From Promethearchaeota archaeon (lineage in GTDB: Archaea > Asgardarchaeota > Lokiarchaeia > Sigyniarchaeales > SOKP01): 23,831 nt of DNA. Position 1 is the stretch's first letter. Every line of letters begins with the position of its first letter. A program made the position numbers and the translations under genes. Of this stretch, positions 1,919 through 13,605 are shown in pieces. A model generated the notes under the pieces. The model saw only the letters and a list, made by a program, of their open reading frames with translations, had not been told where the DNA came from and did not search any database. Where the stretch lies: contig JAFGOA010000114.1 in assembly GCA_016926735.1 (NCBI GenBank), positions 1 to 23,831 on the forward strand. The letters are read 5' to 3'.

Positions 1919-2419
1919 CTATTTTGTTAATTCTTTTATCAAATTCTTATTTTCTGGGTATTTATTTATTAATTCCTTTCTTTCTCCCTGAATATAATCA
2001 TTATATTCAAATCCTGGGGCTACAGTTGTACCTAATAGTGCAAAATCGCCTCCATTTATTAATTTTGCTCCTTGCCAAACGTCTTTCGGCACAATTACTT
2101 GAACTTGCATATCATCTAAAATTCTATTACCTAAGATTATTCTTTTACTTGACCCATCAGGATATAATTGCAGCATTTCCACTGGATCTCCAAGATAAAA
2201 ATGAAAAATTTCATCGGATCTAAGTTTATGTATTTCAGAATAGGTATCTTTTGTTAAAAGATAATAGATTGCTGTTCCTATACTTCTTTTGCCGTTATAT
2301 CTTTCTGGAAGGGCTTCTTTTTCTATTATTTCTGAAGAACGATATGTTTCAAAAAAAAATCCTCCTTCTTTTGGATGTGGTATTAGTTTTAATTTTGTTA
2401 TAATTTCTTGTACATTCAT
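1919..2419 (-). CDS. Cupin_5 / DUF985 family protein
   Basis: L.PHP(K)EGG.F.ETYRS, TAIYYLL, H.L.SDEIFHFY.GDP, Q..VP...WQ.A and TVAPGFEY.D motifs. Confidence 0.92.
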   Translation of the reverse strand: MNVQEIITKLKLIPHPKEGGFFFETYRSSEIIEKEALPERYNGKRSIGTAIYYLLTKDTYSEIHKLRSDEIFHFYLGDPVEMLQLYPDGSSKRIILGNRILDDMQVQVIVPKDVWQGAKLINGGDFALLGTTVAPGFEYNDYIQGERKELINKYPENKNLIKELTK

Positions 2420-2569
2420 ATAATCGATTATAATTTATTTTACTTAAAATCATTAATTGAATTTTTAGGATTAATTATAACCTATTTTTTAAGTAGCTAG
2501 TAAAAGGTAAGACCTGATAAAAATAGAAACAAATTTATTCTACTTAAAATTAAATATAATTATATGTAT

Positions 2570-2653
2570 ATGAGACAAATAGAGTGTACCACTCTAACTT
2601 TTGGATTTAAGCCCAAGACAGGGCAAACATTTAACACTGGTTATAAAAATTAA
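2570..2653 (+). CDS. Putative Thr/Lys-rich leader peptide of asd (MRQIECTTLTFGFKPKTGQTFNTGYKN)
   Basis: ATG at 2570 (another in-frame ATG at 2564) to TAA 2651-2653. Has 6 Thr and 3 Lys in 27 aa and lies 240 nt upstream of asd, followed by a C/T-rich tract. Confidence 0.55.
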   Translation: MRQIECTTLTFGFKPKTGQTFNTGYKN

Positions 2654-2893
2654 TCCAATTAAAATCGTCTCTATCGCCTTTTCTATTGTTTTCCGATCTT
2701 TTATTACTTTCAAATCATCACACTTTACCACATGAGATGATTTTATTTAACGATTATTTTTTTATAAAAGAAGATCTATGTAGAGATTTATCGATAATAA
2801 AAGATTTAAAGGGACTTAGTTCAATTAAGGGTCTGTCTAAGCAACTCAGAGGCACAGAACTTAAATTCAATAGACTTTTTATAATAAATAATC

Positions 2894-3985
2894 ATGGAAA
2901 AGATTAATATTGGTATATTAGGAGCTACTGGAATTATTGGTCAAAATTACATCAAATTACTGCAGGATCATCCTTGGTTTCAAATTACAGATCTAGCAGC
3001 ATCTCTTCAATCTGCAGGAAAATCATTTATAGAAGCTGTAAAACATAAATGGCAAATGTCAATACCTATTCCTGAAGAATTAAAAAACTTGATTGTAAGA
3101 GATGTTAAAGATTTTGATTCTATTCCTGAAAATGTTAGTTTTGTGTTTTCTGCTATTAATATGCCATCAAAAGAACAAGTAAAAGAAGTAGAACTAAGAT
3201 ATGCCAAAAATGAAATTCCCGTCGTTAGTAATAACTCTGCACACCGAATGACTTCAGATGTTCCTATGATTATAGGTGAAATAAATCATTCTCATGTCAA
3301 TGTAATTCCTATTCAAAAAAAAAATAGAGAATTCAACAAGGGATTTATTGTAGTAAAACCTAATTGTACTGTTCAAAGTTATCTTACACCAATATATGCT
3401 TTAGAAAAAGCTGGTTATAAAATTGAAAAGTTAATTATTACCACTTTAAATGCACTCTCTGGCGCAGGGTATCCTGGAGTTGCGTCATTGGATATCATAG
3501 ATAATATCATACCTTATGTAGGTGATGGAGAGGAGGAAAAAACTGAGATTGAACCTCATAAAATACTAGGAAAAATAGGTGATAATGGGATCATAAACAA
3601 TGATTCTATCAAAATTAGCGTCACTTCAACAAGGGTACCTATTGTAGATGGTCATACAGCATGTGTTTCTGTAAAATTTAGAGATCAAATACCATCAAAA
3701 GATGAAATTATTAGAATATGGAATGAATTTAAATCACTTCCTCAAGAACTTGATTTACCATTTGCCCCTAAACAACCAATTATATTTTTAGAAAATATTG
3801 ATCGACCTCAACCAAGAAAAGATAGAGATAATGATAAAGGTATGGCAATTTCTGTAGGAAGATTAAGAAAAGACTCAATCTTTGATTATAAATTTATTGG
3901 ATTAAGTCATAATACTATTAGAGGTGCTGCTGGTGGAGCAATTTTAAATGCAGAACTTTTAAAATCTCAAGGATTCATTTCCTAA
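2894..3985 (+). CDS. asd: Aspartate-semialdehyde dehydrogenase (archaeal/fungal type)
   Basis: GATGIIGQ Rossmann motif, SNNSAHRM, catalytic PNC, ALSGAGYPG, RVPIVDGH and HNTIRGAAGGAILNAE. Confidence 0.97.
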   Translation: MEKINIGILGATGIIGQNYIKLLQDHPWFQITDLAASLQSAGKSFIEAVKHKWQMSIPIPEELKNLIVRDVKDFDSIPENVSFVFSAINMPSKEQVKEVELRYAKNEIPVVSNNSAHRMTSDVPMIIGEINHSHVNVIPIQKKNREFNKGFIVVKPNCTVQSYLTPIYALEKAGYKIEKLIITTLNALSGAGYPGVASLDIIDNIIPYVGDGEEEKTEIEPHKILGKIGDNGIINNDSIKISVTSTRVPIVDGHTACVSVKFRDQIPSKDEIIRIWNEFKSLPQELDLPFAPKQPIIFLENIDRPQPRKDRDNDKGMAISVGRLRKDSIFDYKFIGLSHNTIRGAAGGAILNAELLKSQGFIS

Positions 3986-3993
3986 TTTTTTTT
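3986..3993 (+). terminator. Oligo-T terminator after asd
   Basis: T8 run immediately after the asd stop codon, in the 14-bp gap to the convergent gene. Confidence 0.5.
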
Positions 3994-3999
3994 ATTTTA

Positions 4000-5274
4000 T
4001 TATTTTAAATAGAATTCTGTGTCATCTTGATTAAATTCTCCAGTGATTTCTCCTTTCCCTATTAAATCAAATATAATTCCTATAATTTTGTCTGGCTCAA
4101 TTTTTAAAAATCGTTGAATATAATCAATTTTAACATTTTTCTTTACTTTAATTATTCCTAATATTCTATCTTCAAAATTAACTTTCTCAATTTCTTCAAT
4201 TAATCCTTGCTTTTTTTTGGAATAATGAGTATCGAATTTATCTGAGGAAATTTCTTTTTGGTCTACATATGAGGATTCTTTTTTCATTACATTATCCTCA
4301 TATTTAATACTTTCATTTTTAATTTCAGTGTTCATTAATGAATTTTCTTCTATTTGAGCTTCATTAATTTTAATTGATTGTTCGAGTAAGGGACTTTTCT
4401 CCATTAACGTTCCTATTAACGGGGTAGATTCATAACTTAATTCTAAAACTTCTGCTAAAATCCTGATCATTCTATCACGATTTTCATTACGATTAGCAAC
4501 CATGGGATAGGTTATCAACCCTAATTCTTTTTCAATATCTTTTATATCCATGGCTCCTTTTAAATCCTGTTTATTTCCTATAACTGCTGATCTTGCATAT
4601 GGAACTTCCTTTTCTATTAAATCAATAAAAAATTTGCTTTTTTCTATATTATTTAAAGTTGAATCTGTGATAACTAAAACACCATCGCTACCCTTTATAA
4701 AACTCTTCCATAAATAACGAAATTGTTCCTGGCCTGCAAAATCAAAAAGATTAAAAAATAGATCTCCAATCTTGATTGTTGCGATATCTCCAGTAATAGT
4801 TGGGATATGATAAGTAGGGATTTTATCAAGTTTTATTAGTTGTTTTGTGGTTGTTTTTCCTACACCTGAGAAACCAACAATAGATATCTTTGGTTTTAAT
4901 TTTCTATGGAGAGGATCTGCAATTGAATTTATAATATCAGTTTGGTCTTGTGTTAATTTATCATGTATTTGGTTAAAATTAACCTTATCAAATACTTCTT
5001 GTTTGAAAAGAGCTAGTTCTGGTTTAATAGTACTAAAATAATCATCTACTAACCCTGTAATAAATAGAAAAATTAATTCTTTTTCTATATCAACATCATA
5101 TGATACTCTAAACTTAAAATAATCAAAATGATCTGTATTCTTTTCAATTCTCCTTTTAAGTATTTGCCATATTTTATAGCTGAGATCTTCTATTTCTGAA
5201 TCTGATAAAGCATTGCTAAAATATCTTTTGTATAGAAAATCATTTTTTTTTAAAATTATAATCTGCCTTAACAT
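4000..5274 (-). CDS. Asgard small GTPase fusion: longin-like N-terminal domain, Arf-like GTPase, C-terminal winged-helix/PCI-like domain
   Basis: G1 GFSGVGKTT, G2 PTI, G3 DFAGQ, G4 NKQD. About 125-aa N-terminal beta-beta-alpha domain. C-terminal IFDLIGKGEITGEF resembles a winged helix. Confidence 0.85.
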   Translation of the reverse strand: MLRQIIILKKNDFLYKRYFSNALSDSEIEDLSYKIWQILKRRIEKNTDHFDYFKFRVSYDVDIEKELIFLFITGLVDDYFSTIKPELALFKQEVFDKVNFNQIHDKLTQDQTDIINSIADPLHRKLKPKISIVGFSGVGKTTTKQLIKLDKIPTYHIPTITGDIATIKIGDLFFNLFDFAGQEQFRYLWKSFIKGSDGVLVITDSTLNNIEKSKFFIDLIEKEVPYARSAVIGNKQDLKGAMDIKDIEKELGLITYPMVANRNENRDRMIRILAEVLELSYESTPLIGTLMEKSPLLEQSIKINEAQIEENSLMNTEIKNESIKYEDNVMKKESSYVDQKEISSDKFDTHYSKKKQGLIEEIEKVNFEDRILGIIKVKKNVKIDYIQRFLKIEPDKIIGIIFDLIGKGEITGEFNQDDTEFYLK

Positions 5275-5442
5275 ATTGAAAATAAGGATATTTATTGATC
5301 TTTGTAATTTTTATATTAATATCACAAATGATTTCACATATAAATCTCTGCAAAAGAATAATTTTAAAATTTAAATAATAGCAACGATAAATGACTTATA
5401 ATTTTGATGAAAAGTACTATTTAATAGAATACCTTTTACCAA

Positions 5443-6663
5443 TTAAAAGGTTATAGATAATTCTGTGTTGTCTTCATTAAATTCACACTCAATTAGACCA
5501 TTTCTTATAAAATCAAATATATAGTTAATAATTTTATCTGGCTCTATTTTTAATAATCTTTGGATAAAATCAATTTTAACTGATTTTCTGCCTTTCAATA
5601 AAGCAAGTAATCTTTCTTTATAGAGCATATCACTAATCTCATCTTTTAATCCCTGCTTTTTTTCTTGATAATATTCATTTAAATGCTCATCTACCTCCTC
5701 ATTTAATTCTGCATAATGGTCATTTGAATTTTTTTCTTTTTCCATTTCTTTTTTTAATTGAATTGTACTATCCAAATAATGACTTTGCTCAACTAAAGAA
5801 TCAATAAGTGGCGTAGATTCATAACTTAAATCTAAAATTTCTGCAATTATATCTATCATTTTATCATGGTTTTCAATTCTATTAGCAATCATAGAATAGG
5901 TTTTAATCCCTAAGATCTTTTCAATTTCCTTAATATCCATTGCACCTCTTAAATCTTGCTTATTTCCTATTATTGCAGCTCTAGTATGTGGGACCTCGTT
6001 TTCAATTAATTCTAAGAAGAATTTACTTTCATAAACATTATCTTGAGTAGAATCAGTTACGATCAAAACAGAATCACTTCCTTTAATAAATGTCTTCCAT
6101 AGATATCTGAACTCTTCTTGTCCAGCAAAATCAAAAAGATGAAAAAAAAGATCTCCAATTTTAATTGTAGCAATATCCCCCGTTATTGTAGGTACATGTT
6201 GCAAAGGAATTTCATCTAATTTAATTAATTGTTTTATAGTCGTTTTTCCAACTCCAGAAAAACCAACAACAGCAATTTTGGGTTTTAAATTCCTATGCAT
6301 TGGATCAGCTATAGAATTTAATTTAGCTATCTCAGAATTAGAAAGCTTATTTTTTTTTGGTGAAATTTCAATCGATTCGAAAAATTGACTTATAAATATT
6401 GTTAATTGAGGTTTAATTGTTCTAAAATAATCATCTACTAAACCTGTAACAAACATAAAAATTATCTCTTTTTCTATGTCTACCTCATAAGCAATTCGAT
6501 ATTTGAAATAATCTGAATGGTTTGTTGTTTTTTCAAGCTTCTTTTTAGCGATATTCCATATCTTAAAGCTTAGATCTTCCACTTCAGAATCGGTTAAAGC
6601 ATTTCCAAAACTTCTTCTATAAATTATTTCATTTTTTTTAATCACAAAAATTTGTCTAAGCAT
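5443..6663 (-). CDS. Paralogous Asgard small GTPase fusion (longin-like + Arf-like GTPase + winged helix)
   Basis: Same motifs (GFSGVGKTT, PTITGD, DFAGQ, GNKQD) and collinear similarity to 4000..5274 except in the acidic linker. Confidence 0.85.
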   Translation of the reverse strand: MLRQIFVIKKNEIIYRRSFGNALTDSEVEDLSFKIWNIAKKKLEKTTNHSDYFKYRIAYEVDIEKEIIFMFVTGLVDDYFRTIKPQLTIFISQFFESIEISPKKNKLSNSEIAKLNSIADPMHRNLKPKIAVVGFSGVGKTTIKQLIKLDEIPLQHVPTITGDIATIKIGDLFFHLFDFAGQEEFRYLWKTFIKGSDSVLIVTDSTQDNVYESKFFLELIENEVPHTRAAIIGNKQDLRGAMDIKEIEKILGIKTYSMIANRIENHDKMIDIIAEILDLSYESTPLIDSLVEQSHYLDSTIQLKKEMEKEKNSNDHYAELNEEVDEHLNEYYQEKKQGLKDEISDMLYKERLLALLKGRKSVKIDFIQRLLKIEPDKIINYIFDFIRNGLIECEFNEDNTELSITF

Positions 6664-6829
6664 TTTTCTACTATAAGAAAATAGATATTTTCTTTTATAT
6701 GTATATTGTTTTATAGTACTGAAAGCAAACTTCTATCATAGAAAAAGTCAAAATTTCCATTTATAGCTTTTCTTTTTTTTATGAAAAAAAAAATACTTTT
6801 AATATCTTGAAAATCGATATAATACTATC

Positions 6830-6988
6830 ATGACAGAATGTCCAACTTGTGGGAAAGATACTGTAGTAGAAGTCACTTCTGGTAGTTCTAGCACTTGGGG
6901 TTTTTGGTGTTTGAAATGTAATAGTAAATGGTTAGTGAAGTTAGGAAGACGTGAATCAATAGATACCTTATGGTATAAAATTGAATAA
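6830..6988 (+). CDS. Small zinc-ribbon protein (CPxCG type), 52 aa: MTECPTCGKDTVVEVTSGSSSTWGFWCLKCNSKWLVKLGRRESIDTLWYKIE
   Basis: ATG 6830 to TAA 6986-6988, CPTC…CLKC knuckles, TATA-like TTTTAATA at 6797-6804, downstream oligo-T at about 6997-7013. Below the ORF-track size cutoff. Confidence 0.75.
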   Translation: MTECPTCGKDTVVEVTSGSSSTWGFWCLKCNSKWLVKLGRRESIDTLWYKIE

Positions 6989-7085
6989 TTGAAATATTTT
7001 TTTTTTCTTTTTATGAAATATCTCTTATAATATTCCTTAATAATTTAGAAAAACTAGATTATGATTATATTCTCTAATTTTAAAA

Positions 7086-7157
7086 AACATCCGGTGGGAT
7101 TTGAACCCACAATTGATTGCTTCGAAGGCAATTGTCCTATCATTAGACGACGGATGC
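7086..7157 (-). tRNA. trnR: tRNA-Arg(UCG)
   Basis: Acceptor GCATCCG/CGGATGT; anticodon arm ATTGC-CT TCG AA-GCAAT; T arm GTGGG-TTCAAAT-CCCAC. Confidence 0.9.
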
Positions 7158-7181
7158 ATGTTTTAAATCAATAATTTTTAA

Positions 7182-7255
7182 AGAGTCAGAGGGGATTCGA
7201 ACCCCTGAAATAGACGGTTAAGAGCCGCCTGCCTTAACCTCTTGGCTACTGACTC
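7182..7255 (-). tRNA. trnK: tRNA-Lys(CUU)
   Basis: Acceptor GAGTCAG/CTGACTC; anticodon arm GGCGG-CT CTT AA-CCGTC; T arm AGGGG-TTCGAAT-CCCCT. Confidence 0.92.
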
Positions 7256-7348
7256 GTTTCTGATCCTAATCATTAAATTGGAAATTTTATTTTTTAATTT
7301 CTACATCTTTTTTTTTGAATTGGTAATTTCTTAGTTATAAACAATTGA

Positions 7349-7424
7349 TAGGGATGGTGAGATTCGAACTCACGACCTTCGCTTTATAAGAACGATGATC
7401 TCTAAACCACTAATCTACACCCCC
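7349..7424 (-). tRNA. trnI: tRNA-Ile(UAU)
   Basis: Acceptor GGGGGTG/CATCCCT-A; anticodon arm TCGTT-CT TAT AA-AGCGA; T arm GTGAG-TTCGAAT-CTCAC. Close paralog of the Ile(GAU) gene at 8044. Confidence 0.9.
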
Positions 7425-7520
7425 ATTTTTATTATATTTATTCCATGGAATTAAAATGTGCAATTGATTGTTTAGAATATAATAATTCAATTATTTACCA
7501 CATTCGATGATATTAATTAA

Positions 7521-7596
7521 TAGAGGTGTTGGGATTTGAACCCAAGTTTTCCGGCACATGAAACCGACGTCTTCCACCAAGCTAGACCACACCCCT
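7521..7596 (-). tRNA. trnM: tRNA with CAU anticodon (Met; A1:U72, atypical)
   Basis: Acceptor AGGGGTG/CACCTCT-A; anticodon arm TCGGT-TT CAT GT-GCCGG; T arm TTGGG-TTCAAAT-CCCAA. Confidence 0.8.
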
Positions 7597-7607
7597 ATTA
7601 TTATTGA

Positions 7608-7678
7608 TGGGAGTAATTGGATTTGAACCAATGCTACTGGGTTTGGAATCCAGTCTAATTCTCCTATATTATACTCCC
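7608..7678 (-). tRNA. trnW: tRNA-Trp(CCA), intron-less, weak D arm
   Basis: Acceptor GGGAGTA/TACTCCC-A; anticodon arm CTGGA-TT CCA AA-CCCAG with an A·C mismatch; T arm ATTGG-TTCAAAT-CCAAT. Confidence 0.78.
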
Positions 7679-7692
7679 ATTCTTTCTAAAGA

Positions 7693-7765
7693 TAGGAGAG
7701 GTAGGAATCGAACCTACGAAAACCTCCTTGTAAGGGAGGGACAATAGCCGCTATGTGACTCCCCT
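7693..7765 (-). tRNA. trnV: tRNA-Val(UAC)
   Basis: Acceptor AGGGGAG/CTCTCCT-A; anticodon arm CCTCC-CT TAC AA-GGAGG; T arm GTAGG-TTCGATT-CCTAC. Confidence 0.9.
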
Positions 7766-7777
7766 AAATCTAAAATA

Positions 7778-7849
7778 TACACCCAGTAGGATTTGAACCT
7801 ACATTTTATTGCTTAGAAGGCAATTGTCCTTTCATTAGACGATGGGTGT
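7778..7849 (-). tRNA. trnR: tRNA-Arg(UCU)
   Basis: Acceptor ACACCCA/TGGGTGT-A; anticodon arm ATTGC-CT TCT AA-GCAAT; T arm GTAGG-TTCAAAT-CCTAC. Confidence 0.9.
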
Positions 7850-7873
7850 TTATTTTATTCTAATTTTAAATAA

Positions 7874-7946
7874 AGAGTCAGAGGGGGTTTGAACCCCTGA
7901 AATCGGCGGTTAAAGGCCGCTTGCTTTACCACTTAGCTACTGACTC
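7874..7946 (-). tRNA. trnK: tRNA-Lys(UUU), with C33
   Basis: Acceptor GAGTCAG/CTGACTC; anticodon arm (A)GCGG-CC TTT AA-CCGC(C); T arm AGGGG-TTCAAAC-CCCCT. Confidence 0.87.
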
Positions 7947-8043
7947 TTATTTATTTTTCATATTCTCTCAATATTTTATTACAATAATTTTCATCTTTAT
8001 CTCCTTTACTATTTGACCTCTCATTCTTGATTAATATTTAAAT

Positions 8044-8122
8044 TGGTAGGGATGGTGAGATTCGAACTCACGGCCTACGCTTTATCAGAACGTTGATCTT
8101 TAACCCCCTGATCTACATCCCC
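8044..8122 (-). tRNA. trnI: tRNA-Ile(GAU), with encoded 3' CCA
   Basis: Acceptor GGGGATG/CATCCCT-A-CCA; anticodon arm ACGTT-CT GAT AA-AGCGT; T arm GTGAG-TTCGAAT-CTCAC. Confidence 0.93.
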
Positions 8123-8209
8123 TTATTTTTTATCTTCACACATCCTGTGATATAGTCTTATTCTTGCTTCTATTATCTTTTTTCTAATAAAATACTTCTT
8201 ATATTTTAA

Positions 8210-8311
8210 TGGAGTTGATAGGACTCGAACCTATGCCCTCTCGAATTTCAATTTCGACCATCTCATATAAGAATGATTGTCGAAGGTCCTTCCCCATTAG
8301 ACGACAACTCC
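8210..8311 (-). tRNA. trnF: tRNA-Phe(GAA) with a 28-nt intron at position 32/33 (intron 8251-8278)
   Basis: Acceptor GGAGTTG/CAACTCC-A. BHB-type motif TTCG-ACA-ATCAT…ATGGT-CGAA-ATT. Splicing gives TTCGA-CT GAA AT-TCGAG. T arm ATAGG-TTCGAGT-CCTAT. Confidence 0.88.
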
Positions 8312-8321
8312 TTGATTTAAA

Positions 8322-8393
8322 CGCTCCTAGTATGATTCGAACATACGCCACACTGGGTAACAACCAGGAACACTACCACTATGCTATAGGAGC
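8322..8393 (-). tRNA. trnN: tRNA-Asn(GUU)
   Basis: Acceptor GCTCCTA/TAGGAGC-G; anticodon arm (C)CTGG-TT GTT AC-CCAG(T); T arm GTATG-TTCGAAT-CATAC. Confidence 0.9.
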
Positions 8394-8511
8394 ATAATTT
8401 TATATCTAATTCTATGATATGAAAGTAATTTTTCGAAGAATTATATAGTAAAGGGATAAGAAGTCAAATCATAAGGTAAATCGTTGTTTCTGAAGGAATT
8501 TATGGATATAA

Positions 8512-8589
8512 TTATCGTTTAAATCGATGCATTTTAATAATATTTACAAAATGCCAATTCATCCTTATCATAAATATACGATTGACCAT
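8512..8589 (-). CDS. Putative leader peptide of tRNA array 1 (MVNRIFMIRMNWHFVNIIKMHRFKR)
   Basis: ATG at 8589, 30 nt after TTTAAATA (8619-8612, - strand), stop TAA at 8514-8512. 23 of 25 residues are amino acids with a tRNA in the downstream array, and all eight are present. Confidence 0.65.
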   Translation of the reverse strand: MVNRIFMIRMNWHFVNIIKMHRFKR

Positions 8590-8611
8590 AATATTATCAA
8601 TGCATGTTATA

Positions 8612-8619
8612 TATTTAAA
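8612..8619 (-). promoter_or_regulatory. Candidate TATA box of the leader + tRNA array 1 transcript
   Basis: TTTAAATA on the - strand with an A-rich upstream stretch (GCAAAATA), at leaderless-mRNA spacing from ATG 8589. Confidence 0.55.
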
Positions 8620-8645
8620 TATTTTGCTAGAATATATTCTTATCA

Positions 8646-8691
8646 TTAAAATGGGAAAAGAATGGGCAAGATTGGAAGGAGAATTTAAATA
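8646..8691 (+). promoter_or_regulatory. Repeated upstream motif TTAAAATGGGAAAAGAATGGGCAA plus TATA (TTTAAATA, 8684), copy 1
   Basis: 22/24 identical to 12046-12069, with the same +33 offset from the first ATGGG to a TATA box. Confidence 0.6.
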
Positions 8692-8811
8692 TCTTAGATT
8701 CTTTTCTTAATAACAATAATATAAAATTTAAGAATGATCTTAAGTTACATAGGCGTATAAGTGAGATCTATTATATTATGATATAATTCAAAAATTTATA
8801 AAAAAAGTGTA

Positions 8812-11800
8812 ATGAATGAAAAAAAGATAAATGAATATATTACCCTACGATTAGAAAATAGAGATACAAATATTTACATCAATGAAGAGCTTTTTATTCA
8901 ATGTAAATATCTTCTTTTAAATATTTCCCTTGAAGATGTGCATGAATATGAGGAAATTGGTTCTATTGATGAAGCTGTTGAGAGACTAAATCATGATTTG
9001 GAATTTGGTAATAAATATTCAATAAAACCTGAAACTGAATTTTGGGCTCATTGCTCTAATTTGCAAGTATGGGTAGAACATGATTATGATACTCGAATTC
9101 TACATAGTAACTTATCATTTCCATTACTAAGAAAATTAAGTGAAATTGGAGATCCAAAAGCTAATAGGATATTTAAAGATGAAATAATAAGTAGACTTGA
9201 GAGTAAATATATCCCTGTTATCAGATATCTTATTATTCAAGGATATATGGAGTATTTTACAAAAGAGGAGTTAGATATTATTTATGAAAATCTAGGATTA
9301 GACTATGTAACTGTTCATAATGAAAAAATACCCATTTTGGAGAATGAATTAGATTTATATGGAAAAGAAATAGAAAATATCAATGAAATCATTGGTCTTA
9401 AAAATATTAAAATTTTAAAACTTTCTATTCATGATAATCATATTTCAAGCATAGAAGGACTAGAACATCTAACAAATTTAGAAAGTCTAGATCTAGGGGC
9501 AAATAACATTACTGAGATAAAAAATCTTGATTCTCTAATTAATTTGAAACAATTATTTTTAGACTATAATAATATCGATGAAATTAAAGGATTAGATAAA
9601 TGTAAGGAACTTAAAATGTTAAGAATCTCTGGAAACAAAATTAAAGAAATTAATGGATTGATTGAACTTCATAATCTTAATACTTTAGACCTTCGAGTAA
9701 ATAATATAACATCCACTAAAGGAATAGAAAATCTAAAATTTTTAAAAGACTTAGATCTTTCAAGCAATAAAATTAGTGAATTAGAAGGAATAGCGAAACT
9801 TGAACATCTTGAATCCTTAGATCTTGGAAGCAATCTTATAAGAGAAGTTAAAAATTTGAAAGATCTAAATAAATTAAAACAATTAAATCTAAATAATAAT
9901 AAAATAAGAGATATAAGTTACATAGGGAAGTTGAGTAATCTTGAAAAATTGGATCTTTATAATAATCAAATTATTAAAATCAAGGGTTTGGAGAATTTAA
10001 AAAACTTAAAAATTTTAGAATTATCAAATAATAATATTAAAGAAATACAAAATCTAGATCATTTTACACATTTAGAAATACTTCGACTTACACATAATTC
10101 CATTTCAGAAATTAAGAACTTATCCTTTCTAACCAATCTAAAAGAACTTTATCTCTCTGATAATAAAATTGATGAAATTAAAGAATTAAACAATCTAAAA
10201 AAACTAAATACACTTGCTTTAGAATATAATATAATCACTGAAATTAAAGAAGTATCTCATCTTATAAACTTAGAGCGTTTATACCTTGCTTATAATAGAA
10301 TTAATAACATAAAGGAATTAGATAACTTTTCAAAACTAGAAACTCTTCTTTTAGGTTATAATAAAATAAATAAAATTGATGGCCTCTCTAAACTAACTAA
10401 TCTTACAACATTGAATCTTATTGGTAATGAGATAAAAAGAATTGAAAATCTAGATACATTGAATAAATTAATTAATTTAAACTTAGACTTTAATAAAATT
10501 CAAATTATTGAAGGATTAGATAAATTAATAAATCTCATTTATTTACACTTAAATCATAATCAAATAAAAGAAATTCAAGAATTAGATACCTTAGCAGAAT
10601 TAAATAGTCTTTATCTTAATAATAATTGTATTTCAGAAATTAAAGGATTAGAAAATCTTTCAAAATTACTATATTTATCCCTCACTAATAATAAAATATC
10701 TAAAATTCAAGGTTTAGATAATCTTAAACAATTAACTAATTTATATCTTGATAATAATCAAATTATGAAATTAGAAAACTTGAATAATTTAATAAATGTG
10801 ACTTCTTTAAGTTTTTCATCAAATTTTATTGAAGAAATCAATAGTTTGGATAAACTTAAAAAAATTAGTTATCTTAATTTTCAAAATAACAAAATTAAAC
10901 ATATTAAAGGGTTAAATAAACTAAAATTTCTAAGTTCAGTTACATTAACAGATAATCATATTTCAAATGTCCAAGGATTAGAGAATTTAGAAAATTTAAT
11001 AAGTCTATATTTGGGTAAAAATAACATTAAAATGATTAATGGTCTAGATGAATTAAAAAAATTAGAGAAATTAGATCTTTCATACAATAAAATTAAAGAA
11101 ATAAAAGGTATTCAAAATTTATTAGAACTACATTATTTATATTTATCTTCAAATCAAATAACTGAAATTAAAAATTTAGCCCTCTTAAAAAAATTAGATA
11201 CTTTAGATCTTTCAAATAATAAAATTACTAAAATACAAAATTTAGAGCATCTAATTAATCTAAATTATCTTTTCCTTTCCAAAAATATTATATCTAAAAT
11301 TCAAAATTTAGATTCATTAACTAAATTGAGAGAATTATATCTTAGTTCAAATAGGATAAAAAAGATAGAAAATATAGAAAAGTTATCAAATTTATTTTAT
11401 CTAATTCTCAATAATAATAAAATTACCGAAATTGAGAATTTAAAATCTTCTAAAGAACTAATAAAATTAAATTTATCACATAATCAGATTTCAAAATTAA
11501 CTAATCCTCAAAATCTTTTAAATTTAATTGAGCTTGACCTTTCAAATAATAAAATTAGTGAATTTAATGATATAGGTTGTTTAAATCTTACAACATTAAA
11601 TCTCGAAAATAATTTAATCAAAGAGATCAAAAACCTTGATAATTTAAATTATTTAGAAATTTTAAATCTTTCTGAAAACCAAATTAGTGAAATAATGAAT
11701 TTGGATCTATTAATAGATTTAACAACACTTAATATTTCTAAAAATCAAATTATTGAAATAAAAGGATTAGAAAAATTGACGCAACTTCAGTATTTAAAGA

Positions 11801-11907
11801 TATATGGGAATCAAATCTCATATAGACTTATAGAACAATTAGGTGGTTATAATGATGATGATAATGCAGCCATAATTGAAAATTTTATTGATTATTGTTC
11901 TGGATGA
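8812..11907 (+). CDS. Large leucine-rich-repeat protein (SDS22/internalin-like) with Lokiarchaeia-type N-terminal domain
   Basis: N-terminal PETEFWAHCSNLQVWVEHDYDTRILHSNLSFPLL domain, then roughly 37 22-aa repeats of the form LxxLxLxxNxIxxIxxL. Confidence 0.9.
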   Translation: MNEKKINEYITLRLENRDTNIYINEELFIQCKYLLLNISLEDVHEYEEIGSIDEAVERLNHDLEFGNKYSIKPETEFWAHCSNLQVWVEHDYDTRILHSNLSFPLLRKLSEIGDPKANRIFKDEIISRLESKYIPVIRYLIIQGYMEYFTKEELDIIYENLGLDYVTVHNEKIPILENELDLYGKEIENINEIIGLKNIKILKLSIHDNHISSIEGLEHLTNLESLDLGANNITEIKNLDSLINLKQLFLDYNNIDEIKGLDKCKELKMLRISGNKIKEINGLIELHNLNTLDLRVNNITSTKGIENLKFLKDLDLSSNKISELEGIAKLEHLESLDLGSNLIREVKNLKDLNKLKQLNLNNNKIRDISYIGKLSNLEKLDLYNNQIIKIKGLENLKNLKILELSNNNIKEIQNLDHFTHLEILRLTHNSISEIKNLSFLTNLKELYLSDNKIDEIKELNNLKKLNTLALEYNIITEIKEVSHLINLERLYLAYNRINNIKELDNFSKLETLLLGYNKINKIDGLSKLTNLTTLNLIGNEIKRIENLDTLNKLINLNLDFNKIQIIEGLDKLINLIYLHLNHNQIKEIQELDTLAELNSLYLNNNCISEIKGLENLSKLLYLSLTNNKISKIQGLDNLKQLTNLYLDNNQIMKLENLNNLINVTSLSFSSNFIEEINSLDKLKKISYLNFQNNKIKHIKGLNKLKFLSSVTLTDNHISNVQGLENLENLISLYLGKNNIKMINGLDELKKLEKLDLSYNKIKEIKGIQNLLELHYLYLSSNQITEIKNLALLKKLDTLDLSNNKITKIQNLEHLINLNYLFLSKNIISKIQNLDSLTKLRELYLSSNRIKKIENIEKLSNLFYLILNNNKITEIENLKSSKELIKLNLSHNQISKLTNPQNLLNLIELDLSNNKISEFNDIGCLNLTTLNLENNLIKEIKNLDNLNYLEILNLSENQISEIMNLDLLIDLTTLNISKNQIIEIKGLEKLTQLQYLKIYGNQISYRLIEQLGGYNDDDNAAIIENFIDYCSG

Positions 11908-12045
11908 TTGTTTTACATCTATCTCTAAAAAAGGCTACTTTTTATTTTAATAAATTTTTTATTTTTCAATTTTAAATAGATATCAAATTAAAAAGGTATC
12001 TAAATATATTTTTCTTAACTTTAATACTCATTTAAATTAAAAAGC

Positions 12046-12091
12046 TTAATATGGGAAAAGAATGGGTAATTTTGAGCGAAATCTTTATATA
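12046..12091 (+). promoter_or_regulatory. Repeated upstream motif TTAATATGGGAAAAGAATGGGTAA plus BRE/TATA (GCGAAATC-TTTATATA, 12084), copy 2; promoter of tRNA array 2
   Basis: Strong TATA with a purine-rich BRE-like stretch, motif shared with 8646-8669, and ATG 33 nt after the TATA start. Confidence 0.65.
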
Positions 12092-12116
12092 TATATGGTA
12101 TAATATAAATTATAAC

Positions 12117-12218
12117 ATGAGACGAGTATATTATGTGGGAACTTTTACCCCACAACCAAATACAGAAGCGGACCCTACAGATCAGGGTGCCCAATATAGC
12201 GAATGCTATAGATATTAA
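12117..12218 (+). CDS. Putative leader peptide of tRNA array 2 (MRRVYYVGTFTPQPNTEADPTDQGAQYSECYRY)
   Basis: ATG 12117 to TAA 12216-12218. 24 of 33 residues (24 of 29 after codon 4) are A/Q/Y/D/G/T/C/E/P. It has no Leu, Ile or Lys despite the AT-rich genome. Confidence 0.65.
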   Translation: MRRVYYVGTFTPQPNTEADPTDQGAQYSECYRY

Positions 12219-12330
12219 AGTATTTGAATTCTTGTCTGTCGCTTTCTTCAATCTCTTTAACTTTAAATTCTACTTGCTTCATATAATAAATCAAAATTCT
12301 CAGATGAGTAGATTCAATAACTTTATAAAA

Positions 12331-12401
12331 AGGTGAGTAGTGTAATAGTAGCATTGGAGTCTGTGAAGCTTCAGGTGGTGGTTCAAATCCTCCCTCACCT
12401 T
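12331..12401 (+). tRNA. trnH: tRNA-His(GUG), atypical (no G-1/C73)
   Basis: Acceptor AGGTGAG/CTCACCT-T; anticodon arm GGAGT-CT GTG AA-GCTTC; T arm GGTGG-TTCAAAT-CCTCC with a T·T mismatch; D loop lacks GG. Confidence 0.78.
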
Positions 12402-12480
12402 CTATAATGAGTATCAAATAAGAAAAATCAAGAGAAAGCACTATAAGGACGGTTTGAAAAAAGCTTACGTTAATATAAAT

Positions 12481-12553
12481 GGGGCTGTAGTTTAATTGGA
12501 AAAATTAACAGTTTTGCAAATTGTTGCTGTGGGTTCAAATCCTACCAGCTCCA
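12481..12553 (+). tRNA. trnA: tRNA-Ala(UGC)
   Basis: Acceptor GGGGCTG/CAGCTCC-A with the G3·U70 Ala determinant; anticodon arm ACAGT-TT TGC AA-ATTGT. Confidence 0.9.
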
Positions 12554-12563
12554 CTAAAATCAT

Positions 12564-12637
12564 ACCCCCGTCGTCCAGTGGACAAGGACGCCTGACCTTG
12601 GATCAGAAAACGCAGGTTCGAATCCTGCCGTGGGGTA
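12564..12637 (+). tRNA. trnQ: tRNA-Gln(UUG), with C33 and a 1-nt acceptor-stem bulge
   Basis: Acceptor ACCCCCG/CG(T)GGGGT-A; D arm GTCC…GGAC; anticodon arm (C)CTGA-CC TTG GA-TCAG(A); T arm GCAGG-TTCGAAT-CCTGC. Confidence 0.82.
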
Positions 12638-12661
12638 TCCTTTAAATAAATGATATAAAAT

Positions 12662-12733
12662 CGGACCGTAGCGTAATGGTATCGCAACAGACCGTAGATC
12701 TGGAGATTGCTGGTTCAAATCTGGCCGGTCCGA
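12662..12733 (+). tRNA. trnY: tRNA-Tyr(GUA), with C33, intron-less
   Basis: Acceptor CGGACCG/CGGTCCG-A (archaeal/eukaryotic C1:G72, A73); anticodon arm (A)CAGA-CC GTA GA-TCTG(G); short variable arm. Confidence 0.88.
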
Positions 12734-12742
12734 TTAATAATT

Positions 12743-12813
12743 GGGGCTCTGGTGTAGCGGTAGCAAAGAGGGCTGTCGCCTCTCTGGTGGGGGTTCAATT
12801 CCCCCGTGTCCCG
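12743..12813 (+). tRNA. trnD: tRNA-Asp(GUC)
   Basis: Acceptor GGGGCTC/GTGTCCC-G; anticodon arm GAGGG-CT GTC GC-CTCTC; T arm GGGGG-TTCAATT-CCCCC. Confidence 0.87.
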
Positions 12814-12835
12814 TTGATTGGAAAAGTAATATAAA

Positions 12836-12911
12836 GCGAGATTACTGTAGTTAGGTTAAGCAGCATCGCCTTCCAAGTGAATGAGGGAGGGTTCAAATCC
12901 CTCATCTCGCA
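12836..12911 (+). tRNA. trnG: tRNA-Gly(UCC)
   Basis: Acceptor GCGAGAT/ATCTCGC-A; anticodon arm (A)TCGC-CT TCC AA-GTGA(A); T arm GAGGG-TTCAAAT-CCCTC. Confidence 0.88.
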
Positions 12912-12919
12912 TTAAAAAA

Positions 12920-12994
12920 GCCCCCATAGCATAGTTAGGATAATGCAGCTTCCTTGTAAGTAGCAGATCGTGGGTTCGAATCCCATTAGGGGCT
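12920..12994 (+). tRNA. trnT: tRNA-Thr(UGU)
   Basis: Acceptor GCCCCCA/TAGGGGC-T; anticodon arm GCTTC-CT TGT AA-GTAGC; T arm GTGGG-TTCGAAT-CCCAT. Confidence 0.88.
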
Positions 12995-13047
12995 TTATTT
13001 TGGAAATAAAGACGAGATATATATTATAAAAATAAACAAATAAAAAT

Positions 13048-13120
13048 GCACGTGTGGCTGAGAGGATTAAGCAGGAAAATGCAAATTTCTGAAACACAGG
13101 TTCAAATCCTGTCGCGTGCT
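13048..13120 (+). tRNA. trnC: tRNA-Cys(GCA)
   Basis: Acceptor GCACGTG/CGCGTGC with U73 (Cys determinant); anticodon arm GGAAA-AT GCA AA-TTTCT; T arm ACAGG-TTCAAAT-CCTGT. Confidence 0.9.
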
Positions 13121-13151
13121 TTAAAAAAAATAAAAAAAGAGTGAATAAAAA

Positions 13152-13361
13152 TTGATAGATTTGTGTTTACAAAAAGACATTTTGATTGTAAAAATAAAAA
13201 AAAAGGCTTCAAAATTAGGAAAATTATATTTAGACATAATGATGGAAGGAGAATCTAATGATTCTAAAGGAAAATCTATTCATTTAGCAATATTTAAGCA
13301 GGATAATGATGTGTTTCTAGAATCAAATATGCTAACTATGATTATAAATGAGAATATTTAA
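13152..13361 (+). CDS. Small hypothetical protein inside tRNA array 2
   Basis: 69-codon frame (TTG start, GAGTGA upstream) that fills most of the Cys-Glu spacer in the array's orientation. No recognisable motif. Confidence 0.4.
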   Translation: MIDLCLQKDILIVKIKKKASKLGKLYLDIMMEGESNDSKGKSIHLAIFKQDNDVFLESNMLTMIINENI

Positions 13362-13371
13362 TTTTTTTTTT

Positions 13372-13446
13372 GCTCCTGTCTTTCTAATTGGTTAAGGATG
13401 TTCGACTTTCAATTGAACGATGTGGGTTCAAATCCCGCCAGGAGCT
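13372..13446 (+). tRNA. trnE: tRNA-Glu(UUC)
   Basis: Acceptor GCTCCTG/CAGGAGC; anticodon arm TTCGA-CT TTC AA-TTGAA; T arm GTGGG-TTCAAAT-CCCGC. Confidence 0.88.
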
Positions 13447-13532
13447 TTATCACTTTATGTAATAAATATTATTTACACATACAGTTTTGGATTATTAAAC
13501 AGGAAATGAATTATTATTAAAGATAGCAATGA

Positions 13533-13605
13533 GGGAGTGTAATGTAGTGGTTAGCATCCAAGCTTTGGAAGTTTGTTATCGAAGGTTCAAATCCTTCCAC
13601 TCCTA
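13533..13605 (+). tRNA. trnP: tRNA-Pro(UGG)
   Basis: Acceptor GGGAGTG/CACTCCT-A; anticodon arm CAAGC-TT TGG AA-GTTTG; T arm GAAGG-TTCAAAT-CCTTC. Confidence 0.88.

Follow-up and report, generated by a model that had tools for sequence, protein, structure and literature searches.

Leader-peptide attenuation is a textbook bacterial mechanism that needs coupled transcription and translation. In the enterobacterial leader-peptide attenuators (trpL, thrL, hisL and leuL), a short open reading frame (ORF) carries codons for the regulated amino acids, and the leader RNA adopts one of two exclusive helices, 1:2 or 2:3. The tna operon has the TnaC leader, with a Rho site beside the stop codon; to our knowledge, Rho is absent from archaea. 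Here we describe leaders of comparable anatomy in an Asgard archaeon. The window, by which we mean the whole stretch of 23,831 nucleotides (nt) that was analysed (positions 1 to 23,831 of contig JAFGOA010000114.1, assembly GCA_016926735.1, Promethearchaeota archaeon), carries two divergently oriented arrays of tRNA genes and the gene asd, each preceded by a short leader ORF. A sequence-only reading of the window had proposed that codons near the start of each leader pair with a segment beyond its stop codon, just ahead of a pyrimidine tract, and that the position of the ribosome on the leader may control this long-range helix and the access of termination factors to the tract. We name the start-proximal segment A, the post-stop segment B and a downstream second partner of B, which that reading did not see, D.

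Like the enterobacterial attenuators, these leaders combine a codon-rich short ORF with a shared strand that has two exclusive partners and, in the asd family, with a hairpin followed by a U-run; the 5′ end takes the place of segment 1 in the 1:2 versus 2:3 logic. Unlike the enterobacterial systems, their host is archaeal, and three of the four units recognised here would control tRNA genes. The sensor arm would be the very 5′ terminus of a transcript that is probably leaderless, and not the segment that holds the regulatory codons; the competitor D lies past a pyrimidine loop of 50-78 nt and is itself the 3′ arm beside the U-run. As in tna, a G-poor tract, possibly factor-loading, stands directly past the leader stop, where access to it would depend on the ribosome, but tna has neither a 5′-end helix nor a look-alike competitor.

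Among published designs, the nearest found is that of the mycobacterial leaderless polycysteine short ORFs, which work on a ribosome-binding site (10.1101/834739). They resemble the present leaders in the leaderless sensory ORF (predicted here), in a downstream RNA duplex altered by stalled ribosomes (proposed here) and in the use of one design at several loci; the ribosome-binding-site mechanism is inapplicable to three of our units, whose next genes are tRNAs. In archaea, U4 tracts recognised by aCPSF1 have been described as a termination signal, and a Lokiarchaeota orthologue was reported to cooperate with U-tracts (PMC8716108). FttA, the same factor under another name, binds to RNA rich in U, which it cleaves about 22 nt from the 3′ end (PMC11616081). 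The archaeal leaders share with this signal a U-rich, G-poor RNA before the regulated genes; unlike it, the tracts of two of them lack U4 enrichment. The portions of these two reports considered here do not describe a regulated, structure-gated use of the aCPSF1/FttA pathway, and full-text literature searches, covering their sources in part, returned no description of leader-peptide attenuation in archaea or for tRNA genes. New in the present work are the anatomy of three segments, the conservation of that anatomy and its use ahead of the tRNA arrays of an archaeal cell.

Leader reading frames and the start-proximal helix

Leader 1 (8512..8589, minus strand; MVNRIFMIRMNWHFVNIIKMHRFKR) precedes array 1 (7086..8394, minus strand), which encodes tRNAs for Asn, Phe, Ile, Lys, Arg, Val, Trp, Met, Ile, Lys and Arg. 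Leader 2 (12117..12218, plus strand; MRRVYYVGTFTPQPNTEADPTDQGAQYSECYRY) precedes array 2 (12331..13605, plus strand), with His, Ala, Gln, Tyr, Asp, Gly, Thr, Cys, Glu and Pro. The asd, or Lys/Thr, leader (2564..2653, plus strand; MYMRQIECTTLTFGFKPKTGQTFNTGYKN) stands before asd (2894..3985, plus strand), whose product has aspartate-semialdehyde dehydrogenase domains. A fourth leader, overlooked in the sequence-only reading, is the Leu/Ser leader (MILNINNSLFLSLSLSSLLLL), located before a third array of three Leu and two Ser tRNA genes on contig C42 (7266-7742) of the same genome; it serves as an independent test case, since that reading was made with no knowledge of it.

As in bacterial attenuators, the ORFs are enriched in codons cognate to the products behind them. 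Array 1 serves 19 of the 24 residues after Met in leader 1 (0.39 expected from the proteome; binomial p 6e-5), or 22 of 24 when its intron-bearing tRNA-Phe is counted. By the same test against the proteome expectation, array 2 serves 24 of 32 residues in leader 2 (p 5e-5) and the Leu/Ser array 14 of 20 in its own leader (p 2e-7), and the leader ORFs before asd or dapA are rich in Thr and Lys. This match between the ORFs and their downstream genes most naturally suggests control by the position of the ribosome, and since the products of three units are tRNAs, such control must act on the transcript and not on translation of a downstream gene. The reading frame is retained in all 14 orthologous leader ORFs compared. 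Cognate codons also come early: Leu or Ser at codon 3 in the Leu/Ser leader, Asn at codon 3 and Ile at codon 5 in leader 1, Tyr-Tyr at codons 5-6 in leader 2, and Thr-Thr at codons 7-8 in the asd leader, numbered from the ATG at 2570. The asd leader has two in-frame ATGs one codon apart, as do leaders of genera g1, g5 and g6; in two g11 leaders the second is replaced by AAG or ACG.

TATA-like octamers lie 30-33 nt ahead of the ATGs of leader 1, leader 2 and the Leu/Ser leader (counted by eye): TTTAAATA (8612..8619, minus strand) begins 30 nt before the leader 1 ATG, and TTTATATA (12084..12091, plus strand) 33 nt before that of leader 2. Because of this spacing, we infer that the three transcripts are probably leaderless or nearly so. 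Three metatranscriptome contig sets from the same study yielded only stray matches of 18-26 nt, inside a leucine-rich repeat (LRR) gene.

The same upstream regions hold two further elements. The 16-mer ATGGGAAAAGAATGGG has only two copies in the window genome (8651-8666 and 12051-12066), both on the plus strand and each about 30 nt ahead of a TATA-like word, one belonging to leader 2 and the other to an LRR gene (8812) that diverges from leader 1. The 16-mer is conserved in the orthologues and can be read as a mini-ORF, MGKEW[AV]xLxExFxY; a factor site linked to the promoter and a tiny gene are both conceivable. Where this box stands in the other two tRNA leaders, the Leu/Ser leader has a near-palindrome, GAGGGAATTTATTCCCAC, about 60 nt upstream of its ATG and conserved in two related species (G001 and G002).

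All three pairings proposed from the window sequence are present as described. On the minus strand of leader 1, GGUCAAUCGU (8587-8578, ORF bases 3-12) faces ACGAUUUACC (8484-8475) with nine of ten positions paired and one C.U mismatch. In leader 2, AGACGAG (12120-12126, plus strand) forms 7 base pairs (bp) with CUUGUCU (12231-12237), one of them G.U, and the B segment as a whole spans 12216..12238 (plus strand), with its core CUUGUCUG (also given as CUCGUCUG) at 12231-12238. In the asd leader, GAGAC (2572-2576) forms 5 bp with GUCUC (2667-2671); here A can be drawn as GAGACAA (2572..2578, plus strand), of which 6 of 7 positions pair with B, AAAAUCGUCUCU (2661..2672, plus strand). The one geometric constant across the four leaders is the placement of A within the first 2-15 bases, a position that an initiating ribosome, or one stalled early, would cover.

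Orthologous leaders were found in three other species of the genus (G001, G002 and G003; the window genome is G000), and A:B is kept in every one aligned; leader 1 was not found in G002 with the query used. In leader 2, AGACGAG faces CUCGUCU with 28 of 28 alignment cells paired, the only changes being A-U to G.U and G-C to G.U, and control partners made by sliding paired in 32-57% of cells. In leader 1, where AAUCGU faces ACGAUU and three outer pairs are added, 26 of 27 cells are paired; one G-C has become A-U by a double change, and there is one G.U. In the Leu/Ser leader, UGAUCUCA pairs with UGAGAUCG, which begins 2 nt past the stop, in all 24 cells, and in the asd leader GAGACGA pairs with UCGUCUC in 26 of 28. 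Over all four leaders, shifting the partner by 1-3 columns lowers the share of paired cells to 11-61%. In 5000 shuffles of the alignment columns, an all-species stem as long as the observed one arose 56 times for leader 2 (7 bp), 62 times for leader 1 (6 bp), never for the Leu/Ser leader (8 bp) and 337 times for the asd leader (5 bp).

The helix is also specific to its leader. The energies of pairing between a 5′ end and the post-stop region of its own family are −11.1, −8.7, −9.8 and −10.1 kcal/mol, as against −3.6 to −6.4 kcal/mol with the regions of foreign families, the exception being leader 2 with asd, which have sequence in common. The RNAalifold consensus fold contains A:B for the Leu/Ser leader and leader 1. 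The codons that make up A are minor ones for their amino acid (CGA 12.5%, CGT 9.5%, ATC 11%, GTC 7.4%), and the residues they encode vary between species (R/G, R/Q, V/I, L/S) while the pairing is mostly retained, which points to a constraint on segment A as RNA and not as peptide. Taken as a feature of the alignments, a conserved helix between start-proximal and post-stop segments, specific to each leader, appears credible. An extra pairing in the Leu/Ser leader of the window genome, GAUCUUAAAU with AUUUAAAAUC, was set aside as chance, since it is unconserved.

The Lys/Thr leaders extend the comparison beyond the genus. A two-motif pattern gave five matches in 61 genomes, with none for its reversed control, and an anchor that excluded A and B gave six matches in 135 genomes; the resulting family comprises ten genomes in four genera, including four species of the window's genus. 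The leader lies directly before asd in genus g1 and in G041, and in genera g6 and g11 (G060, G042, G081 and G101) a dapA-like gene follows the leader, whose peptide is Lys/Thr-rich; in G042, of g6, the dapA-like gene is upstream of asd on the same contig. An asd-type leader was present within 520 nt upstream of asd at 5 of 30 loci, a count that understates the family because the g6 and g11 leaders precede the dapA-like gene. The core of B, UCGUCUCU, is invariant in all ten genomes, as expected of a strand with two partners. The A:B helix is complete (7 of 7 pairs) in seven genomes and lacks one pair (6 of 7) in the remaining three, and the ORF between A and B diverges across the family.

The second partner of B and the tract it encloses

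At a distance of 50-78 nt downstream, B has a second partner, D, and pairing with D excludes pairing with A. Being likewise a complement of B, D looks like A, and its position makes the pyrimidine tract the loop of a large hairpin. In leader 2, D (12301..12325, plus strand; core CAGAUGAG at 12301-12308) forms with B an extended helix whose 5′ arm starts at the stop codon and whose 3′ arm ends about 6 nt before tRNA-His. Of the 20 pairs in this helix, three have changed in both strands; 93.8% of cells are paired, and the score was reached by 7 of 500 shuffles. In the asd leader, AAAAUCGUCUCU pairs with UGAGAUGAUUUU (2733-2744) over 12 pairs, 93.8% paired, with three one-sided changes that keep the pair; D is followed there by a U-rich tail with a U7 run, the whole lying at 2733..2766 (plus strand). 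In the Leu/Ser leader a second, overlapping helix joins AUCGAUUCUU to AAGAAUCGAU and is 87% paired. Two exclusive helices sharing one strand, the arrangement of an attenuator, were thus found in these three leaders. In leader 1 of G001, about 60 extra bases before tRNA-Asn hold an AAAUCG word resembling A, a candidate D.

Across the ten genomes of the Lys/Thr family, D varies only as AGAG[A/G][U/C]GA, with 8 of 8 positions paired in seven genomes and 7 of 8 in three. A U4-5 run follows within one base of D in 8 of 10, and an A-run lies ahead of B in 8 of 10 by our own count. D has a local partner inside the loop as well, which we call C: in the asd leader, AAAUCAUC (2712-2719, plus strand) pairs with GAUGAUUU in three of four species, and another local stem is found in the fourth; in leader 2, UCUACU (12269-12274) pairs with AGUAGA (12307-12312).

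The two folds are close in energy. With one helix or the other forced, A:B and B:D folds lie within 3.0 kcal/mol in 7 of 11 sequences (for example −38.1 against −38.4 kcal/mol for leader 2 of G000 and −41.3 against −41.2 kcal/mol for the asd leader of G001), and the rest differ by up to 8.2 kcal/mol, the largest gap being that of the Leu/Ser leader in G000. In truncated leader 2 transcripts without D, A:B has a predicted probability of 0.81-0.98 in three of four species, the G001 transcript having been started at the wrong upstream ATG.

Further hairpins occur within the leaders, so that A:B closes a multi-hairpin domain. The leader 2 ORF has one at 12134-12154 (UGUGGG/CCCACA), conserved with a wobble change in G002, and one at 12195-12210 (UAUAGC-GAAU-GCUAUA), conserved and just before the stop. 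A similar hairpin, UAUAGC-ANGU-GCUAUA, recurs in the dapA/asd leaders of genera g5, g6 and g11, which have two more hairpins with compensatory changes.

The C/U-rich tract that had been described after each 3′ partner is a general property of these leaders. In the 40 nt past B, the pyrimidine fraction (Y) is 0.60-0.80 in all 14 sequences of the four leaders and their orthologues, against a genome mean of 0.50 (standard deviation 0.11); windows with Y of at least 0.70 make up 4% of the genome. In leader 1 the tract covers 8435..8474 (minus strand; Y = 0.72), in leader 2 the 62-nt B:D loop at 12239..12300 (plus strand), and in the asd leader the 60-nt B:D loop at 2673..2732 (plus strand; Y = 0.80 over its first 40 nt). 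The similar core attributed to the three tracts is shared by two, asd and leader 2 having UCGUCU..UCG..UUUYU and, at the 5′ side, AUGAGACGA in common, whereas leader 1 is alike in composition only.

The suggestion that the tract itself is a site of termination fared less well. Over the 60 nt that follow B, leaders 1 and 2 have 0-1 runs of U4 or longer, the Leu/Ser leader 1-2 and the asd leader 1-3, for a genome mean of 0.9 per 60 nt, and the conserved U4-5 of the asd/dapA family follows D and not the tract. A terminator role of the tract is therefore unsupported; measured against the published U4 signal, it is a plausible factor platform in the asd and Leu/Ser leaders and not evidently one in leaders 1 and 2. 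For the hairpin and U-run expected of an attenuator, the asd family has a candidate in the local C:D hairpin and the U4-5 after D, and the tRNA leaders have no clear signal of this kind. An Rfam scan of 2400-12450, with E values up to 1, returned only tRNAs and weak antisense-tRNA matches, and no leader, T-box or riboswitch family. A C/D-box small RNA or a bulge-helix-bulge processing stem was rejected by eye, the box and bulge features being missing.

A further leader elsewhere in the window genome lies before ilvE (MTLMNTKTEKNVFNYLAVALAAAIAVVVF; contig C19, ~8955-9150). It has a 9-bp hairpin, UCAAGAUAA/UUAUCUUGA, from 1 nt past the stop, then U5, and its start, UGACCUUA, is complementary by eye to UAAGGUCA, an 8-mer about 100 nt further on.

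A proposed ribosome-gated switch and its rivals

These observations fit a model in which each leader is a ribosome-gated, attenuator-like switch with two folds, a reading to which we give somewhat less than an even chance. In the first fold, A (bases 2-15) pairs with B, and the ORF is closed into a structured domain; in the second, B pairs with the A look-alike D, and the pyrimidine tract is looped out. Unhindered passage of the ribosome would leave A free, so that A:B forms; D would then fold into its small local hairpin with the U-rich tail exposed, and transcription, or the transcript, would end short of the tRNAs or of asd. If a ribosome instead stalls close to the 5′ end, on scarce cognate codons, or if others queue behind it, A would be covered, B:D would form and the RNA would be read through. 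In the asd family, the read-through state may be reinforced by pairing of the A-run ahead of B with the U-run after D. B:D would thus be the 'on' fold and A:B the 'off' fold. The earlier proposal of a ribosome-controlled long-range helix is partly supported, by the conserved, leader-specific helix and the codon-matched ORFs, and falls short in having missed D and in the weakness of the U4 evidence in leaders 1 and 2.

Several observations weigh against this model. Within the window genome alone the pairings are not beyond chance: compared with 1000 dinucleotide shuffles, the duplex between the first 16 nt and the 50 nt past the stop has p 0.47 in leader 2 (energy −8.8), 0.075 in leader 1 (−10.2), 0.24 in the asd leader (−8.1, in another register) and 0.066 in the Leu/Ser leader. 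A purine-rich start readily pairs with a pyrimidine-rich tract. Of 465 short ORFs in the same genome that have a TATA-like word ahead of them, 19 pair at or below −9 kcal/mol with the post-stop region and 22 with a control region (+200 nt), and a ranking of these ORFs by amino-acid bias gave mostly noise. The conservation anticipated for the helix is present in every species, but true covariation is nearly absent, with one double change among the 31 A:B pairs of the four leaders, and the two failures in the asd leader are disrupting A.C oppositions in G000 and its nearest relative, G003. The comparison of tRNA leaders is confined to three or four closely related species; when metagenomes were scanned with a 23-nt anchor lying outside the helix, two loci were added, identical to G001 and G003 over the aligned leader region. 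The distance from stop to B varies from 2 to 27 nt among the four leaders, 27 nt being that of leader 1.

The second helix and the exit signal raise difficulties of their own. In G000 and G003, leader 1 showed no conserved D and so no pair of exclusive helices sharing a strand, and the B:D helix of the Leu/Ser leader has no compensatory double change. Past B, leaders 1 and 2 show no excess of U4 runs, and no strong-looking terminator stands before tRNA-His or tRNA-Asn. B:D and the local C:D helix both end just before the same U-run, so that bacterial antiterminator logic is not cleanly transferable. A ribosome stalled at regulatory codons late in the ORF would leave A uncovered unless others queued behind it.

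A first rival explanation is that A:B is a by-product. A would then be purine-rich for coding or initiation, B would be kept for its hairpin with D, and the device would consist of a codon-matched ORF and a B:D (or C:D) hairpin with a U-run, a ribosome at the end of the ORF masking B. The duplex energies equalled by post-stop shuffles in leader 2 and asd, and the lack of genome-wide enrichment among the TATA-preceded ORFs, are what it would lead one to expect; compensatory changes are found in B:D and almost none in A:B, and A is broken by A.C in the asd leaders of G000 and G003, while D changes only in ways that keep the pair. The ilvE leader, with its hairpin and U5 directly past the stop and no post-stop partner of its start by eye, would fit such a device. 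What argues against a by-product is the specificity and persistence of A:B. Three unrelated A sequences occur in the four leaders, each complemented past its own stop and not past the others'; column shuffles seldom reproduce the stems (p ~0.01, ~0.01 and <0.0002); A stays complementary across four genera although the intervening ORF diverges; and A is made of minor codons. On balance we regard a by-product as unlikely, though the explanation to be taken most seriously beside the ribosome-gated switch.

The polarity of the ribosome-gated switch could also be reversed, with A:B as the antiterminator or protective fold that shields the tract from FttA/aCPSF1. A stall in mid-ORF would leave A and B free to pair, and a ribosome at the stop would mask B, expose the tract and let the transcript end. 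B lies 2-12 nt past the stop in the Leu/Ser leader, leader 2 and the asd leader, within or at the edge of the reach of a terminating ribosome, and A:B would form before D exists; the binding of FttA to U-rich RNA and its cut about 22 nt from the 3′ end, as given in PMC11616081, would suit an exposed tract. In leader 1, however, B is 27 nt from the stop, the tracts of leaders 1 and 2 have no U4 enrichment, and D is left without a role. We consider this arrangement improbable.

Slightly less probable again is an action of the helix on the leader RNA itself, whether by pairing of the 5′-terminal AUG that limits the leaderless ORF to a first round of translation, by protection of the 5′ end of the cut-off leader against 5′-3′ exonucleases or as a processing stem for tRNA release. 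In leader 2, asd and Leu/Ser, one or two bases at the end of the start codon belong to A, and the extended B:D helix of leader 2 ends about 6 nt before tRNA-His; bulge-helix-bulge and C/D-box features are nevertheless absent by eye, and neither the likeness of A to D nor the same design before a protein gene is explained. Least probable of all is that the leaders are independent small genes ending in a pyrimidine- or U-rich tract, with array promoters in the A/T-rich loop: TATA-like words do occur in the leader 2 loop of all four species, ~40-50 nt before tRNA-His by eye, but they are off the ~30-nt spacing seen, also by eye, at single tRNA genes of other genera, three ORFs are codon-matched to three arrays, and the same cassette stands before asd and dapA.

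Genomic setting and meaning

The window is contig C157 of a genome of 3.88 Mb with 26% G+C. Its two arrays and the Leu/Ser array together hold 26 tRNA genes that jointly cover all 20 amino acids, the sole intron-bearer being the tRNA-Phe of array 1 (8210-8311, minus strand; 28-nt intron). Several array anticodons are duplicated as single genes elsewhere in the genome. Large arrays were not seen in five genomes of three other genera of the family, where tRNA genes are dispersed and often bear introns, and in three regions upstream of tRNA genes in two of these genomes, G018 and G010, from four tRNA clusters taken, no leader ORF was found.

The gene asd has a second paralogue on contig C151 (3339-4421), 75% identical to the window copy. 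Two tandem paralogous genes for Arf/Roc-type small GTPases (4000-5274 and 5443-6663, minus strand), one with a weak PCI-domain match, adjoin three large LRR proteins and a WD40 protein, all of them eukaryote-like signature families. SRP19 and HypA are also among the protein families of the window, beside the Arf/Roc-type GTPases, LRR and WD40 proteins, and this set of families suggests an archaeon of Asgard type.

Still more tentatively than the switch itself, we put forward the broader proposition that attenuators truly gated by the ribosome exist in Asgard archaea, as three-segment switches whose sensor arm is the 5′ end of a leaderless ORF, and that the three tRNA arrays of one genus are governed in this way, each being made when its own tRNAs decode too slowly. 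If true, this would give archaea their first described attenuation mechanism, and would be the first case in a cell of decoding speed feeding back directly on tRNA gene expression. The anatomy is mutable, consisting of three short segments, a pyrimidine loop and codon-matched ORFs, and so allows a test of whether the ribosome gates the archaeal polymerase and its termination factor. Such gating would show how a cell tunes its tRNA supply to decoding demand, and as the Asgard archaea are the closest known relatives of eukaryotes, the coupling of translation to transcription in these organisms is of wider interest.

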